A stretch of DNA of 64,000 bases from Verrucomicrobiota bacterium (GTDB lineage Bacteria > Verrucomicrobiota > Verrucomicrobiia > Limisphaerales > AAA164-E04): positions 192,001 to 256,000 of the forward strand of contig CP170459.1 in the NCBI GenBank assembly GCA_047947115.1, read 5' to 3'. The notes beneath the pieces were generated by a model. It was not told where the DNA came from. It searched no databases and saw only the letters and a program-made list of their open reading frames with translations. A program made the translations under genes and the position numbers. The first letter of the stretch is position 1; each line of letters begins with the position of its first letter. This document shows positions 21,182-28,453 of this stretch, piece by piece.

Positions 21182-21230
21182 TATTTAGAATCATTCTAAG
21201 TATTGACATTAATTAAAGAGCGTTTACTTT
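21182..21230 (+). promoter_or_regulatory. Sigma70 promoter with abutting PerR/Fur-type operator
   Basis: Perfect 7-1-7 palindrome TTAGAAT-C-ATTCTAA (21185-21199); TTGACA (21203-21208), 16 bp, TACTTT (21225-21230). Confidence 0.75.
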
Positions 21231-21242
21231 GCGTTCAGCGAG

Positions 21243-21701
21243 ATGAAAGAAGAACAATCGTCGACACAGGAAAACAACGATTTGGCGCGCAAACTGGCTC
21301 ACAGCGGGATGCGGATGACGTCTCAGCGTGAACATGTGTATCGCACACTGCTGAACCAGACGGACCACCCCACTGCGGATGACGTATATTTACGGGCCAA
21401 GGCAGACATGCCGGAAATTTCCATCGCAACTGTTTACAATACCTTGGACGCGTTGGTGAAATGCGGCCTCATCAAGCAGGTCAACGTCGAACGCACTGCC
21501 ACGCGCTATTGTTCCAACATGAAGGAACATTGCCACTTTTTTTGCGAGGAATGCGGGAACATTCATGACGTGGATTACAAAAAAGGCAGGGACGAGTTGC
21601 CGGTGAAAATCCCCCGCAACCTGATCCCGACCCAGGTGGATATTTCCATTCGAGGGCATTGCATCAACCCACTCTCCTGTCCGAACCGATCCAAAAACTA
21701 G
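21243..21701 (+). CDS. Fur-family transcriptional regulator (PerR-like)
   Basis: HPTADDVY, ATVYNTL, HCHFFCEECG, RGHC. Confidence 0.9.
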   Translation: MKEEQSSTQENNDLARKLAHSGMRMTSQREHVYRTLLNQTDHPTADDVYLRAKADMPEISIATVYNTLDALVKCGLIKQVNVERTATRYCSNMKEHCHFFCEECGNIHDVDYKKGRDELPVKIPRNLIPTQVDISIRGHCINPLSCPNRSKN

Positions 21702-21808
21702 GCGCAAAGCACCTGGGAAGAGGAACTGACCGCATTGAGTTCAGGCTAGCCTGAGGGAAATACTCACAATCCATTTTAAAACATCCAATAAGACTTGATT
21801 CATAAGAA

Positions 21809-23257
21809 ATGAGCAGCGCAACAGAAACCATCGAGGGATTTGTCAAAAGCGAATACAAATACGGCTTCATCACGGATATCGAAGCCGAATCAGCGCCTCC
21901 GGGTTTGAATGAGGACATCGTCCGGTTCATCTCGGCCAAAAAGAACGAACCGGACTTCATGCTGGAATGGCGTCTGAAGGCTTTTCGTTACTGGCAAAAG
22001 ATGGCCAATCCAGCCTGGCCTAAAGTGGAGTATCCGGCCGTAGATTTTCAGGATATTATTTACTACTCCGCCCCAAAGAAAAAAACAGACGGACCCAAAA
22101 GCATCGACGAGGTGGATCCCAAGCTGCTGGAGACTTATGAAAAGCTGGGCATCCCCCTGCATGAACGGGCCCGACTGGCCGGGGTCGCTGTCGACGCGGT
22201 GTTTGACAGCGTTTCGGTAGGAACCACTTACCAGGAAACATTGGCCGAAAAAGGGATCATCTTCTGCCCCATGTCGGAAGCGGTTCAAAAGCATCCCGAA
22301 CTGGTTCAAAAATATCTGGGCAGCGTGGTTCCCTATACCGATAATTTTTATGCAGCATTGAATTCCGCCGTCTTCAGCGATGGCTCCTTCGTCTTCATAC
22401 CGAAAGGGGTCCGTTGCCCGATGGAACTGTCCACCTACTTCCGTATCAACGCGGCCAAGTCCGGTCAATTCGAACGCACTTTGATCGTGGCCGAAGACAA
22501 CAGCTACGTCAGTTACCTGGAAGGCTGCACCGCTCCGATGCGCGATGAAAACCAGTTGCATGCGGCCGTCGTGGAACTGGTCACCATGGATAACGCGGAA
22601 ATCAAATACAGCACCGTGCAGAACTGGTATCCGGGTGATGAAAACGGAAAGGGCGGCATTTATAATTTCGTGACCAAACGCGGATTGTGCAAAGGACGTA
22701 AATCCAAGATTTCCTGGACGCAGGTGGAAACAGGATCCGCCATCACCTGGAAATATCCCAGCTGCGTGCTTCAGGGCGAAGACAGCGTGGGCGAATTCTA
22801 TTCTGTCGCGCTGACCAACAACCGTCAGCAAGCCGATACGGGCACCAAAATGGTGCATGTCGGGAAAAACACCCGCAGCACAATTGTATCAAAAGGCATC
22901 TCGGCCGGAAAGGGACAGAACAGTTACCGAGGATTGGTACAGGTGCGAAAGTCTGCCGAAAACGCGCGCAATTTCTCACAGTGCGATTCCCTCCTTATCG
23001 GAGATCAGTGCGGCGCGCACACTTTCCCTTACATTGAGGTCAAAAACACTTCTTCCAGCGTGGAACACGAAGCCACCACCAGCAAGATCGGTGAAGATCA
23101 GATCTTTTACTGCAATCAACGCGGCATCTCCACACAGGATGCGGTGAACATGATTGTCAACGGATTCTGCAAAGAGGTCTTCCGCGAACTTCCCATGGAG
23201 TTTGCCGTGGAAGCACAGAAGCTGCTGGGCGTGAGTCTCGAAGGCAGCGTAGGATAA
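21809..23257 (+). CDS. sufB: Fe-S cluster assembly protein SufB
   Basis: [31 protein letters not shown]. Confidence 0.97.
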
Positions 23258-23296
23258 ACAAGAAAACCGATCCAATCACTTTAACGAATTTTTACT

Positions 23297-26029: not shown

Positions 26030-26038
26030 TACAACAGC

Positions 26039-27295
26039 GTGGAATCCACCTTGAACACAAACACGACAGACGCGTTGAGCCTGCGTACTCGAAAAGATTT
26101 CCCAATCCTTGATCAGGAAATCAACGGGCACCCCCTGATCTACTTCGACAACGCAGCAACCAGCCAGAAACCGGTTCAGGTTCTGGACGCGGTGCGTCGC
26201 TACTACGAGCACGACAACGCCAACGTACACCGGGGCATCCATGAGCTGAGCAATCGCGCAACCTTGGCTTACGAATCGGCCCGGGAACGAACAGCTCAAT
26301 TCCTTAACGCGCGCAGTTCCAAAGAAATCGTTTTCACGCGCGGCACCACGGAAGCGGTCAACCTGGTCGCCTCCTGCCTCGGACAATCCTTGAAATCCGG
26401 GGATAAGATTCTCATCACCGAAATGGAGCACCACAGCAACATGGTGCCTTGGCAATTGATCGCACAACGGACAGGGGCGGAGTTGCTTTATCTTCCGGTG
26501 AAGGACACATTCGGTGAACTTGATCTGGATCAACTGGACAACTTGCTGACACCCGATGTCAGAATCTTCAGCTTCGTTCACATTTCCAACAGCCTGGGAA
26601 CCATCAATCCCGCCAGGGTTCTGTGCGCCAAAGCCAGATCCGTCGGAGCATTAAGCTTTGTCGATGGCGCTCAAAGCGGCGGACATTATCCGGTGGACCT
26701 GCAGGATATCGACTGTGATTTCTACGCTCTGTCGGGTCACAAGATAGGAGGACCGACCGGTATCGGAGCACTGTATGCCAAGGGAGATTTGTTCAATGAA
26801 CTGCCACCTTATCACGGCGGGGGCGAAATGATTTCGGAAGTCACGTATGACAGGCCGATATTCAAAGAAGGTCCGCACAAGTTTGAAGCGGGCACACCCA
26901 ACATGTCCGGAGCGGTGGGCCTTGCCGCGGCCATGGATTACATCGATTCCATCGGCCGACAAGCCATCTACGATCACGACCGGGAACTGGCCGAATATTT
27001 TTACAACGAAATATCCAAACTGCCCGGCACGCAGGTCTACGGTCCCAAAGAAAATCGGGCAGGTCTGGTCAGCTTTCTCCTGGGAGGGATGCATGCCCAT
27101 GACCTGGTGACCCTGGCTGACCAGAAGGGAATCGCCCTGCGAGGCGGCCATCATTGCACCCAGCCGCTGATGAAAAAATTCGGAGTCACGGGAACGGCAA
27201 GAGCCAGTTTTTATTTTTACAACAACCGCCAGGAAGTCGACCGCTGCCTGGAAGTATTGGAACACATTCAAAAAAGGTTCGGCGACTTGGAATAG
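26039..27295 (+). CDS. sufS: Cysteine desulfurase SufS (group II)
   Basis: YFDNAATSQKP, SGHK, RGGHHCTQP. Confidence 0.95.
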   Translation: MESTLNTNTTDALSLRTRKDFPILDQEINGHPLIYFDNAATSQKPVQVLDAVRRYYEHDNANVHRGIHELSNRATLAYESARERTAQFLNARSSKEIVFTRGTTEAVNLVASCLGQSLKSGDKILITEMEHHSNMVPWQLIAQRTGAELLYLPVKDTFGELDLDQLDNLLTPDVRIFSFVHISNSLGTINPARVLCAKARSVGALSFVDGAQSGGHYPVDLQDIDCDFYALSGHKIGGPTGIGALYAKGDLFNELPPYHGGGEMISEVTYDRPIFKEGPHKFEAGTPNMSGAVGLAAAMDYIDSIGRQAIYDHDRELAEYFYNEISKLPGTQVYGPKENRAGLVSFLLGGMHAHDLVTLADQKGIALRGGHHCTQPLMKKFGVTGTARASFYFYNNRQEVDRCLEVLEHIQKRFGDLE

Positions 27296-27344
27296 GCTGA
27301 AGCCCTGCCGGAAACATTGAAAAACCATAAATCTTGATCATCAC

Positions 27345-27905
27345 ATGAGCGACGCATCCAACATTACACCCCAATCCACCATGAAGGAGGTTTTGGAAAC
27401 CTTCCCATGGGCACAACGCGCATTGTTTCGACACTATCACATCGGCGGATGCGCCAGCTGTGCTTTTCAACCCGAGGAAACAGTGGAAGCGCTGTGCCAA
27501 CGCAATGAGAATCTGGATCCAAACGAAGTCATCGGAAAGATTCAGGAGTGCCATGATGAGGACTCCAAAGTATTGATGACCGCCATGGACGTTTCTGAAG
27601 CCCTTCAATCCGATGCCCCCTGCCGACTGGTAGACATCCGAACCAGCGAAGAATGGGATGCGGTCAAATTGGAGGGAGCCGTCCATATGTCCCAGGAATC
27701 CATGCAAATGATCCTGACCCAGTGGCCACGCGAAGATCTCCTGGTCATCTATGATCACATGGGGCGCAACAGCCTGGATGCGGCCACTTATTTTCAGGGC
27801 CAGGGATTTAAAAACGTTCGCTGCCTGGCCGGAGGCATTGACGCGTGGTCCCGCGAAGTGGACAACTCGGTGGCGCGCTATCGTTTGGAACCAGTGGAAG
27901 GTTGA
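27345..27905 (+). CDS. CxxC (DUF1858-like) domain fused to rhodanese-like domain lacking the catalytic Cys
   Basis: HIGGCASC; LVDIRTSEEW, loop IYDHMGRNS, LAGGIDAW. Confidence 0.8.
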   Translation: MSDASNITPQSTMKEVLETFPWAQRALFRHYHIGGCASCAFQPEETVEALCQRNENLDPNEVIGKIQECHDEDSKVLMTAMDVSEALQSDAPCRLVDIRTSEEWDAVKLEGAVHMSQESMQMILTQWPREDLLVIYDHMGRNSLDAATYFQGQGFKNVRCLAGGIDAWSREVDNSVARYRLEPVEG

Positions 27906-27943
27906 TTTCCGGGAAATTGAGCCTACTATTTTGAAAGAGTAAC

Positions 27944-28453
27944 ATGTCAGACGCATTTCAACAAAAAGTCGAGGAAGCCATCCGCAACCCCAAGAATCTG
28001 GGCAAGATGGAAGATGCTGATTCAGTGGGCACTGTGGGAGGCGCAGGATGCGGAGACATGCTGCGTATGTGGCTGAAGTTTCGAGATCAGGACGGCAAGA
28101 AGGTCATCGACAAGGCTTCTTTCCAGTCGTTTGGATGTGAAACAGCCATTGCGGCAGCCAGCCTGGCGACGGAACTGATTCGTGGGAAGACCACCGAAGA
28201 AGCCATGTCCATGTCGGGGGCCGAACTGGCAGCTGACCTCGGTCCCCTGCCCCCGACCAAAATCCACTGCACCACCATGGTGGAGGACGCGCTACGCACG
28301 GCCATTGAATCACATCAAGGCAAAGCCTGCGAAAACCTCGAACCAAAATCACAAAGCACCCGCTCGTCGAACAGTTTGCTCGATAATATGAATGCTTCCA
28401 CAAAGGGAGGCAAGGGACTTAAAGTCGTCCTGCTGCCCCCGGAAGAAAGTTAA
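27944..28453 (+). CDS. IscU/NifU-N-type Fe-S scaffold protein
   Basis: GCGD, FGC, LPPTKIHC. Confidence 0.9.
   Translation: MSDAFQQKVEEAIRNPKNLGKMEDADSVGTVGGAGCGDMLRMWLKFRDQDGKKVIDKASFQSFGCETAIAAASLATELIRGKTTEEAMSMSGAELAADLGPLPPTKIHCTTMVEDALRTAIESHQGKACENLEPKSQSTRSSNSLLDNMNASTKGGKGLKVVLLPPEES

Follow-up and report, generated by a model that had tools for sequence, protein, structure and literature searches.

The cysteine desulfurase SufS needs a sulfur acceptor, either SufE or SufU, and the SufBC2D complex serves as the scaffold for iron-sulfur (Fe-S) clusters; SufE and SufU alternate among relatives (PMC13066941). Described SUF systems are of the Escherichia coli type (SufS-SufE-SufBC2D with A-type carriers) or of the Bacillus subtilis type (SufS-SufU). 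Here we describe an eight-gene suf operon in a 64,000-nucleotide (nt) stretch of DNA, hereafter the window, from a Verrucomicrobiota bacterium (assembly GCA_047947115.1, contig CP170459.1, positions 192,001 to 256,000 of the forward strand). Like the described systems it encodes SufB, SufC, SufD and SufS, with a SufE acceptor and A-type carriers in the same genome. It differs from them in that sufE and the carriers are unlinked and in that the operon holds a Fur-family first gene, a long SufT, a CxxC domain joined to a pseudo-rhodanese (gene 7) and an extra U-type protein (gene 8, named V-U). At about even confidence, we read it as a SUF system with SufE acting in trans, which would be autorepressed by its own Cys-swapped PerR-like first gene and would end in a pair for cluster holding, transfer or repair rather than in sulfur carriers.

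Several described regulators come close to the first gene. PerR of Streptococcus mutans binds the suf promoter (PMC11631912), that of sufCDSUB, and the present regulator is like PerR, including that of B. subtilis, in structure, in four metal ligands, in four structural Cys and in its operator. It differs from PerR in the change of Asp85 to Cys, in its place as first gene of the suf operon and in an apparent one-operon regulon. The alphaproteobacterial Irr is also of the Fur family and has a similar operator, with ICE sites reported upstream of suf operons (PMC1698941). Irr, however, is heme-responsive and mostly wide-ranging, whereas the regulator described here scores far below the Irr cut-offs, carries structural Cys motifs and stands at the operon head. 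SufR and IscR, the Fe-S-sensing repressors that head suf or isc, share its genomic position and the autorepression predicted here, but belong to protein families other than Fur; for the present regulator, binding of a cluster is hypothetical.

The U-type protein and gene 7 likewise have described counterparts. V-U shares with the IscU and MisU scaffolds (MIS) three Cys, an Asp or Glu, a His, a Lys, the LPP motif and the absence of the SufU insertion. It differs in forming its own clade, in changed equivalents of Tyr3, His10, Tyr11 and Gly64, in having no adjacent group I desulfurase (its neighbour is the group II SufS) and in being tied to a CxxC protein and SufT. Fusions of SufT in print are to U-type domains (five) and to DUF1858 (four) (PMC4982691). 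The CxxC domain of gene 7 may resemble in its predicted fold the small DUF1858/DUF542 domains (Mashruwala 2016), but it falls under the family cut-offs and is fused to a pseudo-rhodanese or to a U protein. Control of suf by a Fur-family protein has been described, and so have dedicated repressors at the head of an operon; the combination of both in a Cys-swapped PerR appears to be undescribed, as does a clade of U-type proteins tied to a CxxC domain. The literature searched, which had most subscription papers outside it, gave no account of a suf-specific role for the regulator and none of the pair, and the available parts of PMC8896826, PMC8204192, PMC10631705, PMC7980591, PMC6282519 and PMC11672702 contain none of either feature. 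The V-U clade may lie within the published MIS/SMS trees (Garcia et al. 2022).

The operon, its regulator and the predicted operator

Eight co-oriented open reading frames (ORFs) on the forward strand span 21243-28453 of the window, with intergenic gaps of 107, 39, 24, 18, 9, 49 and 38 nt. The regulator (21243..21701), which matches Pfam FUR, is followed by sufB (21809..23257; NF008773, 928.7 bits, cut-off 717), sufC (23297..24070; TIGR01978, 357.3 bits, cut-off 212.8), sufD (24095..25450; TIGR01981, 288.7 bits, cut-off 222), a long sufT encoding DUF59 with an N-terminal extension (25469..26029; TIGR03406, 235.9 bits, cut-off 202.6) and sufS, a group II cysteine desulfurase gene with catalytic Cys373 and His352 (26039..27295; TIGR01979, 543.6 bits, cut-off 475.1). 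All five Suf proteins exceed their NCBIfam cut-offs. Gene 7 (27345..27905) and gene 8 (27944..28453) complete the series. The source genome (6.08 Mb, 95.8% complete) has as its closest named relatives Verrucomicrobiota labelled Pedosphaera or Limisphaerales.

RNA coverage, taken from 4 of the 20 runs that contain this stretch, fits a single transcript. Contigs start at 21252 in two studies, at 21278 in a third and at 21441 in a fourth. Those of run X1 span regulator-sufB-sufC-sufD, sufD-sufT-sufS, sufS-gene 7 and gene 7-gene 8, so that every junction is bridged, and one contig of run X2 extends from 22613 to 29111. The upstream sulfatase gene has no RNA coverage in three runs and thin coverage in X2. 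The preliminary description of the locus, made from the sequence, had listed eight closely spaced co-oriented genes with the last two as operon members and had proposed local autoregulation by the operon's own regulator; the ORFs, family matches and RNA contigs bear out the first two points, and the operator described below agrees with the third.

The best match of the regulator in the PDB is B. subtilis PerR (E 2e-19), whose regulatory ligands are His37, Asp85, His91, His93 and Asp104 (PMC4866751). The regulator keeps His42, His96, His98 and Asp109 as equivalents of four of these, together with four structural Cys, and places Cys90 at the Asp85 position. In an alignment of the best 120 of 719 homologs this Cys is present in 120/120, the other four equivalents are kept in 118-120 (His42 in all 120). 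An extra Cys74 is conserved; the second Fur of the genome has Asp at the Asp85-equivalent position. Zur has Cys at the Asp85 position and is without His37, and Asp104 marks peroxide-sensing PerR (PMC4866751). Because Cys at Asp85 is combined with a kept His37 equivalent, the regulator fits neither family. Among profile hidden Markov models (HMMs), all PerR models stay under their cut-offs, the Zur model reaches 31.1 of 167 and the Irr models reach 75.8 of 150 and 71.5 of 170 bits.

Relatives were compared in an order survey of 71 genomes and a class survey of 121 genomes, 11 genomes being common to both. Regulator orthologs occur in 54 of the order genomes and 57 of the class genomes. At all 39 class loci examined (of 56 non-self class matches) the regulator heads sufB or sufC-sufB, and it therefore goes with the SUF core and not with the pair.

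A perfect 7-1-7 palindrome at 21185..21199, the predicted operator, ends 3 nt before a conserved -35 hexamer, TTGACA (21203..21208, forward strand). It matches the Irr ICE consensus (PMC1698941) at 13 of 14 positions and the PerR box (PMC11631912) at 12 of 14. A match of at least 11/14 is present in 26 of 29 order promoters, the window included, and in 34 of 39 class promoters, against shuffle means of 0.2 and 0.3, with at least G224 common to both sets; control promoters gave 1/58 for sufT and 0/52 for sufS. The distance from the palindrome to TTGAC is unchanged in most of the order's orthologs. Within the source genome the operator is the single outstanding site, scoring 25.4 against 16.5 for the next. 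Six of 34 operons are without the regulator gene and all six are without the operator, five of them probably being close kin. From the spacing of the -35, transcription would start near the regulator ATG and be near-leaderless. A strict scan for sigma-70 promoters and terminators gave nothing above shuffles; it overlooked the -35 box of the operon because the -10 is weak.

The weaker operator-like matches of the source genome (16.5 or less) were dropped as a regulon and include an 8-copy repeat. This is a 25-nt sequence in eight identical copies (e.g. C1:393179, 669524 and 2275258), partly operator-like with a score of 16.2, and probably the end of a repeat element.

Genes 7 and 8 as a pair

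Genes 7 and 8 are, on the evidence of sequence, a conserved unit, and no description of it was found in the literature searched. Gene 7 and V-U mark the same genomes in 44/44 cases in the order and in 34/34 in the class, one V-U being a fragment, and each of the six genomes in which gene 7 has no U gene next to it encodes V-U at another place. V-U is absent from four genomes that carry labels other than Verrucomicrobiota and have a Cys-type rhodanese; three Cys-type rhodanese loci do have an adjoining V-U. At nine loci gene 7, V-U and the long sufT form a trio without sufB or sufS nearby. In G223 one 205-amino-acid ORF right after sufS joins the CxxC domain directly to V-U, the rhodanese being deleted, and this fusion is no assembly error because a second such protein (P0200) is 77% identical. 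Complex prediction lends weak support to the pairing: the predicted gene 7/V-U complex scored 0.41 against 0.01 for the best control, with a contact agreement of at least 46% and a partner pLDDT of at least 80. Of 157 solved pairs 116 came up to the mark applied, as did 2 of 215 mismatched pairs, but those doing so with values of 0.60 or less were only 18 solved pairs and both mismatches.

The structure model of gene 7 (pLDDT 94) comprises a rhodanese domain and a small helical N-terminal domain. The former matches Pfam rhodanese at 52.4 bits (cut-off 22.2) and superposes on GlpE with Z 16.0 and a root mean square deviation of 1.8 over 101 aligned residues. In name, the CxxC-rhodanese of the preliminary description holds for the fold and the N-terminal CxxC; the catalytic Cys is replaced by Asp137. 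Of 113 homologs, 105 have Asp at the catalytic position and 8 have Cys, and H32, C36 and C39 of the N-terminal His-x-Gly-Gly-Cys-x-x-Cys motif are invariant (113/113). Among 42 distant representatives that span the site, Asp (15) and Cys (12) are about equally common, and loss of the catalytic Cys is therefore lineage-specific.

Folded alone, the N-terminal domain retrieved 2K5E (TM 0.65, probability 0.96, E 0.57) and 2K53 (TM 0.60) in Foldseek, with E-values that are not significant and the next match at probability 0.09. We take both entries to be DUF1858 structures. The fold assignment is that of Foldseek. A fold search with the whole gene 7 model was filled by rhodaneses. Pfam profiles for DUF1858 and DUF542 match the domain weakly, in 6 and 5 of 86 members, and TIGR03980 ('redox disulfide domain') matches it at 19.6 bits (cut-off 44.95). 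In the ESM Atlas only Verrucomicrobiota clusters under 0.9 were found. No long fusion of the domain (at least 327 amino acids) was found, which is weak evidence; shorter fusions exist. Two proteins (P0198 and P0240) have three parts, a GBBH-like N domain (DUF971), the CxxC domain and a rhodanese that keeps its Cys. The Fe-S protein HCF101 likewise contains DUF971, there fused to DUF59. An Omnitrophota genome that lacks V-U (L047:9650-11729) has a Cys-type CxxC-rhodanese gene behind a 4Fe-4S ferredoxin gene and near a short sufT.

Gene 8 matches Pfam NifU_N. V-U lacks the SufU insertion and retains C36, D/E38 (D38 in gene 8), C65, K106, H108 and C109, with His108 and the three Cys invariant in 67/67 proteins. 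It carries Lys-Ile-His-Cys in place of the Arg-x-Lys-Cys of SufU and reaches 49.6 of 92.5 bits with TIGR01994; as an IscU it also stays under the cut-off (TIGR01999, 106.7 of 192.4 bits). In a tree of 132 columns rooted on SufU, the 67 V-U sequences form one clade (support 0.89), set apart from 12 MisU and 30 NifU proteins in a sample that includes no proteobacterial IscU. A phylum-wide NifU_N survey was dominated by other classes with NifU or MisU and served only for tree outgroups. Throughout, P0181, P0156, P0217, P0218, P0197 and P0128 were left out as looking like chimeric or frameshifted gene calls. The equivalent of IscU Tyr3 is Phe5 in gene 8, and Tyr is kept there in 4 of 67 V-U proteins as against 73/73 other U-type proteins; the His10, Tyr11 and Gly64 equivalents are changed as well. 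Tyr3, Tyr11 and Lys59-Gly64 of IscU contact IscS, a Y11A mutant still bound IscS, and Lys103 is needed for binding (PMC2854127). An ordinary misU is present in many order genomes that lack V-U, in most cases next to a desulfurase gene and often with an rrf2 gene.

Sulfur acceptors, carriers and neighbouring genes

The position between sufD and sufT is empty in the window. In many relatives it holds a zinc-SufU gene, in others sufE, and genes 7 and 8 remain at the operon end. One such SufU is a true zinc-SufU by TIGR01994 (156 bits). SufU and gene 8 stand in the same locus at 32 fetched loci, a few of them fragments at contig ends, and sufE occupies the slot at six loci of five genomes with the pair still present. 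Of the 44 order genomes that bear the pair, 29 have SufU and 13 of the remaining 15 have a high-scoring SufE, G205 and G218 being left unassigned; none of the 14 genomes with a high-scoring SufE has SufU. A-type carriers are found in all 44, compared with 18 of the 27 other order genomes. Because the pair is found alongside SufU or SufE, and alongside A-type carriers, it adds to SufE/SufU and SufA and does not replace them. His352 of SufS is invariant in SufU users and SufE users alike. Nine order genomes (G167, G173, G178, G200, G202, G206, G219, G221 and G222) have SufU-like matches, no A-type carrier match and no pair, a minimal SUF set-up.

The source genome itself encodes a SufE with the active-site Cys motif at C1:3980624, unlinked to the operon, which exceeds the Pfam cut-off, falls under the NCBIfam SufE cut-off (122 of 160) and is covered by RNA contigs in 4/4 runs. 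The gene lies directly behind dxr of the isoprenoid pathway (L001:232-1896), and both are on one RNA contig in run X2. Two A-type carriers and four group I-like desulfurases are also present. One of the four exceeds the NifS cut-off and has no U gene within its 4 kb locus, and no desulfurase scanned reaches an IscS equivalog cut-off. Two of the group I-like genes lie 5 kb apart (C1:1112110 and 1117958), both below the NifS and IscS cut-offs. Gene 8 is the sole NifU_N protein of the genome, and a search for HscB_C in this 95.8% complete assembly gave no match. Near C1 771,000 (L198:1366-3156) the only Nfu match forms the C-terminus of a large protein that runs off the locus and has a molybdopterin dinucleotide-binding domain.

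These results bear on the preliminary description. The statement that SufE and SufA are missing is true of the operon and not of the genome. A SUF/ISC hybrid is not supported: the IscU-like gene occurs together with SufU or SufE, and in every case with A-type carriers, and HscB was not found in the source genome. Of the refuting case that it had named, a sufE elsewhere that fully activates SufS, the half that concerns the presence of such a gene is borne out. The genome search it had proposed for sufE, sufA, iscS and hscB recovered sufE and the carriers, and found neither an IscS equivalog nor HscB.

Downstream, a ninth gene (28476..29075, forward strand) starts 22 nt after gene 8, lies on the same RNA contigs and encodes a 199-amino-acid protein with no family over cut-off. 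Among the loci mapped it is present only in the two closest relatives, and it is likely to share the operon transcript here and yet be no conserved part of the system. The protein has a hydrophobic N-terminus and a weak match to the LA_0442/LA_0875 N-terminal family. At 29243-29280 there is a 15-bp hairpin flanked on either side by T tracts, resembling a bidirectional terminator and single-copy in the genome. Just upstream of it (29071-29120) is a short repeat with about 14 blastn matches in the genome; RNA contigs stop at 29078-29111.

Mechanism, alternatives and meaning

The proposed mechanism begins with the SUF core, in which SufS would very probably take sulfur from cysteine, SufE carry it, SufBC2D build the cluster, and SufT and the A-type carriers mature the targets; the families are those matched above and the chemistry is that of established SUF systems. 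With equal assurance, footprinting of the orthologous promoters suggests that a dimer of the regulator would bind the palindrome beside the -35 and repress the whole transcript, itself included. We put it at somewhat better than an even chance that the co-repressor would be ferrous iron or an Fe-S cluster at the His/Cys/His/His/Asp site, from which it follows that iron shortage or cluster damage would release the operon. Co-occurrence and natural fusion make it highly probable that the CxxC domain works with V-U and that the rhodanese domain would be a non-catalytic, dispensable appendage. The last step is evenly balanced in our judgement: V-U may bind a [2Fe-2S] cluster received downstream of SufBC2D, while the CxxC domain would co-ligate it or keep thiols reduced during transfer, together with the long SufT.

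A number of points weigh against this reading. Related genomes are not independent, and kinship and linkage (adjacency) inflate all the co-occurrence counts given above. RNA contigs are no proof of one transcript, and the libraries may contain DNA. The operator is weak (8-10 of 14) at 5 of the 39 class loci. An interface signature on SufS, tried as a discriminator between SufU and SufE users, gave no clean separation by residues. As for the signal, zinc or peroxide could be sensed, because Cys at Asp85 is known in Zur and Asp104 marks PerR (PMC4866751), and the Akkermansia protein brought in below is a probable ortholog by gene order and locus tag alone. As for gene 8, V-U keeps Lys106 (the equivalent of IscU Lys103) and the LPP motif, four group I-like desulfurases exist in the genome, and Asp38 is Glu in 31 of 67 V-U proteins, which could change metal preference. 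The changed Tyr3, Tyr11 and Gly64 equivalents suggest that V-U has lost docking to IscS; with Y11A still binding IscS and the lysine kept, V-U may nonetheless dock to a desulfurase.

One alternative concerns the regulator alone, which would repress the operon but respond to peroxide in the manner of PerR or to zinc in the manner of Zur, and not to iron or cluster status. The near-complete conservation of the four PerR ligand equivalents, the binding of the S. mutans suf promoter by PerR (PMC11631912), the Zur-like Cys and the use of zinc-SufU by many relatives all speak for it. We nevertheless consider it rather unlikely: no second site of comparable score exists in the source genome, so that no peroxide-defence or zinc-uptake regulon is evident, and Zur is without the His37 ligand that is invariant in the regulator homologs. 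The probable ortholog in Akkermansia muciniphila, moreover, responds to iron: the Fur-family gene Amuc_0486, which precedes sufB by two locus tags, is down 2.6-fold in iron-amended medium and drops together with Amuc_0487 and Amuc_0488 in one polyphenol comparison (PMC12552655).

It is less probable still that V-U acts as an independent second scaffold. As a relocated MisU it would assemble [2Fe-2S] clusters together with the unlinked desulfurase of NifS type, the CxxC domain would serve as its reductant, and the SUF core and regulator would work as we propose. The kept scaffold ligands, K106 and the LPP motif would fit such a role, the closest solved structure to V-U is the archaeal NifU-1 of PDB 4EB5, and the NifS-type enzyme, itself without a neighbouring U gene, has an ortholog in 38 of the 44 pair-bearing genomes. 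That enzyme, however, also occurs in 19 of the 27 other genomes (Fisher p 0.13), and a pairing with V-U by co-occurrence was rejected as not specific. True misU, mostly beside a desulfurase, belongs to a different clade and coexists with V-U in G209 and G216, and the near-absence of the Tyr3 equivalent from V-U argues in the same direction.

A role for the pair as a metal (zinc or iron) or thiol-redox accessory, never carrying an Fe-S cluster and placed in the operon only for co-regulation, seems to us improbable. It would accommodate the Glu at position 38, the weak resemblance of the CxxC domain to TIGR03980 and the frequent separation of the pair genes from suf, but it is at odds with the invariant His108 and three Cys of V-U, with the lasting linkage of the pair to SufT and with the fusion of the CxxC domain to other Fe-S-related domains (the DUF971/GBBH-like N domain of P0198 and P0240). 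The original model, in which sulfur passes from SufS to the IscU-like protein and the rhodanese and these two stand in for SufE and SufA, could draw on the empty acceptor slot, the position of the pair directly after sufS in most order operons and the thought that SufU derives from a MisU ancestor (PMC13066941), but is very improbable in view of SufE and A-type carriers in the genome, the presence of SufU or SufE in at least 42 of the 44 pair-bearing genomes and of A-type carriers in every one of them, a rhodanese that has exchanged its catalytic Cys for Asp and is deleted in the natural fusion, a V-U protein without the SufU insertion and Arg-x-Lys-Cys motif, and trios with sufT found away from sufS.

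A wider proposal, which we advance tentatively and hold to be unlikely as a whole, is that Verrucomicrobia may have turned the PerR scaffold into a dedicated, Fe-S-cluster-sensing SUF repressor, binding the cluster through the new Cys as a Fur-family counterpart of SufR and IscR, and may have given U-type proteins a third job besides those of scaffold and sulfur carrier, in a cluster delivery or repair module of V-U, the CxxC domain and the long SufT. As a caution for annotation, an IscU-like or rhodanese label in these genomes does not imply that an ISC pathway or sulfurtransferase activity is present. The V-U/CxxC/SufT unit provides an entry point to the roles of long SufT and of DUF1858-like domains. 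The probable Akkermansia ortholog, treated by the authors of its description as a general iron-uptake Fur (PMC12552655), may instead be the suf operon's own repressor. By naming the regulator, the operator and the one ligand that has changed, the reading proposed here would provide a testable account of how Fe-S synthesis is controlled across an entire bacterial class, with the gut commensal Akkermansia probably among the bacteria covered.

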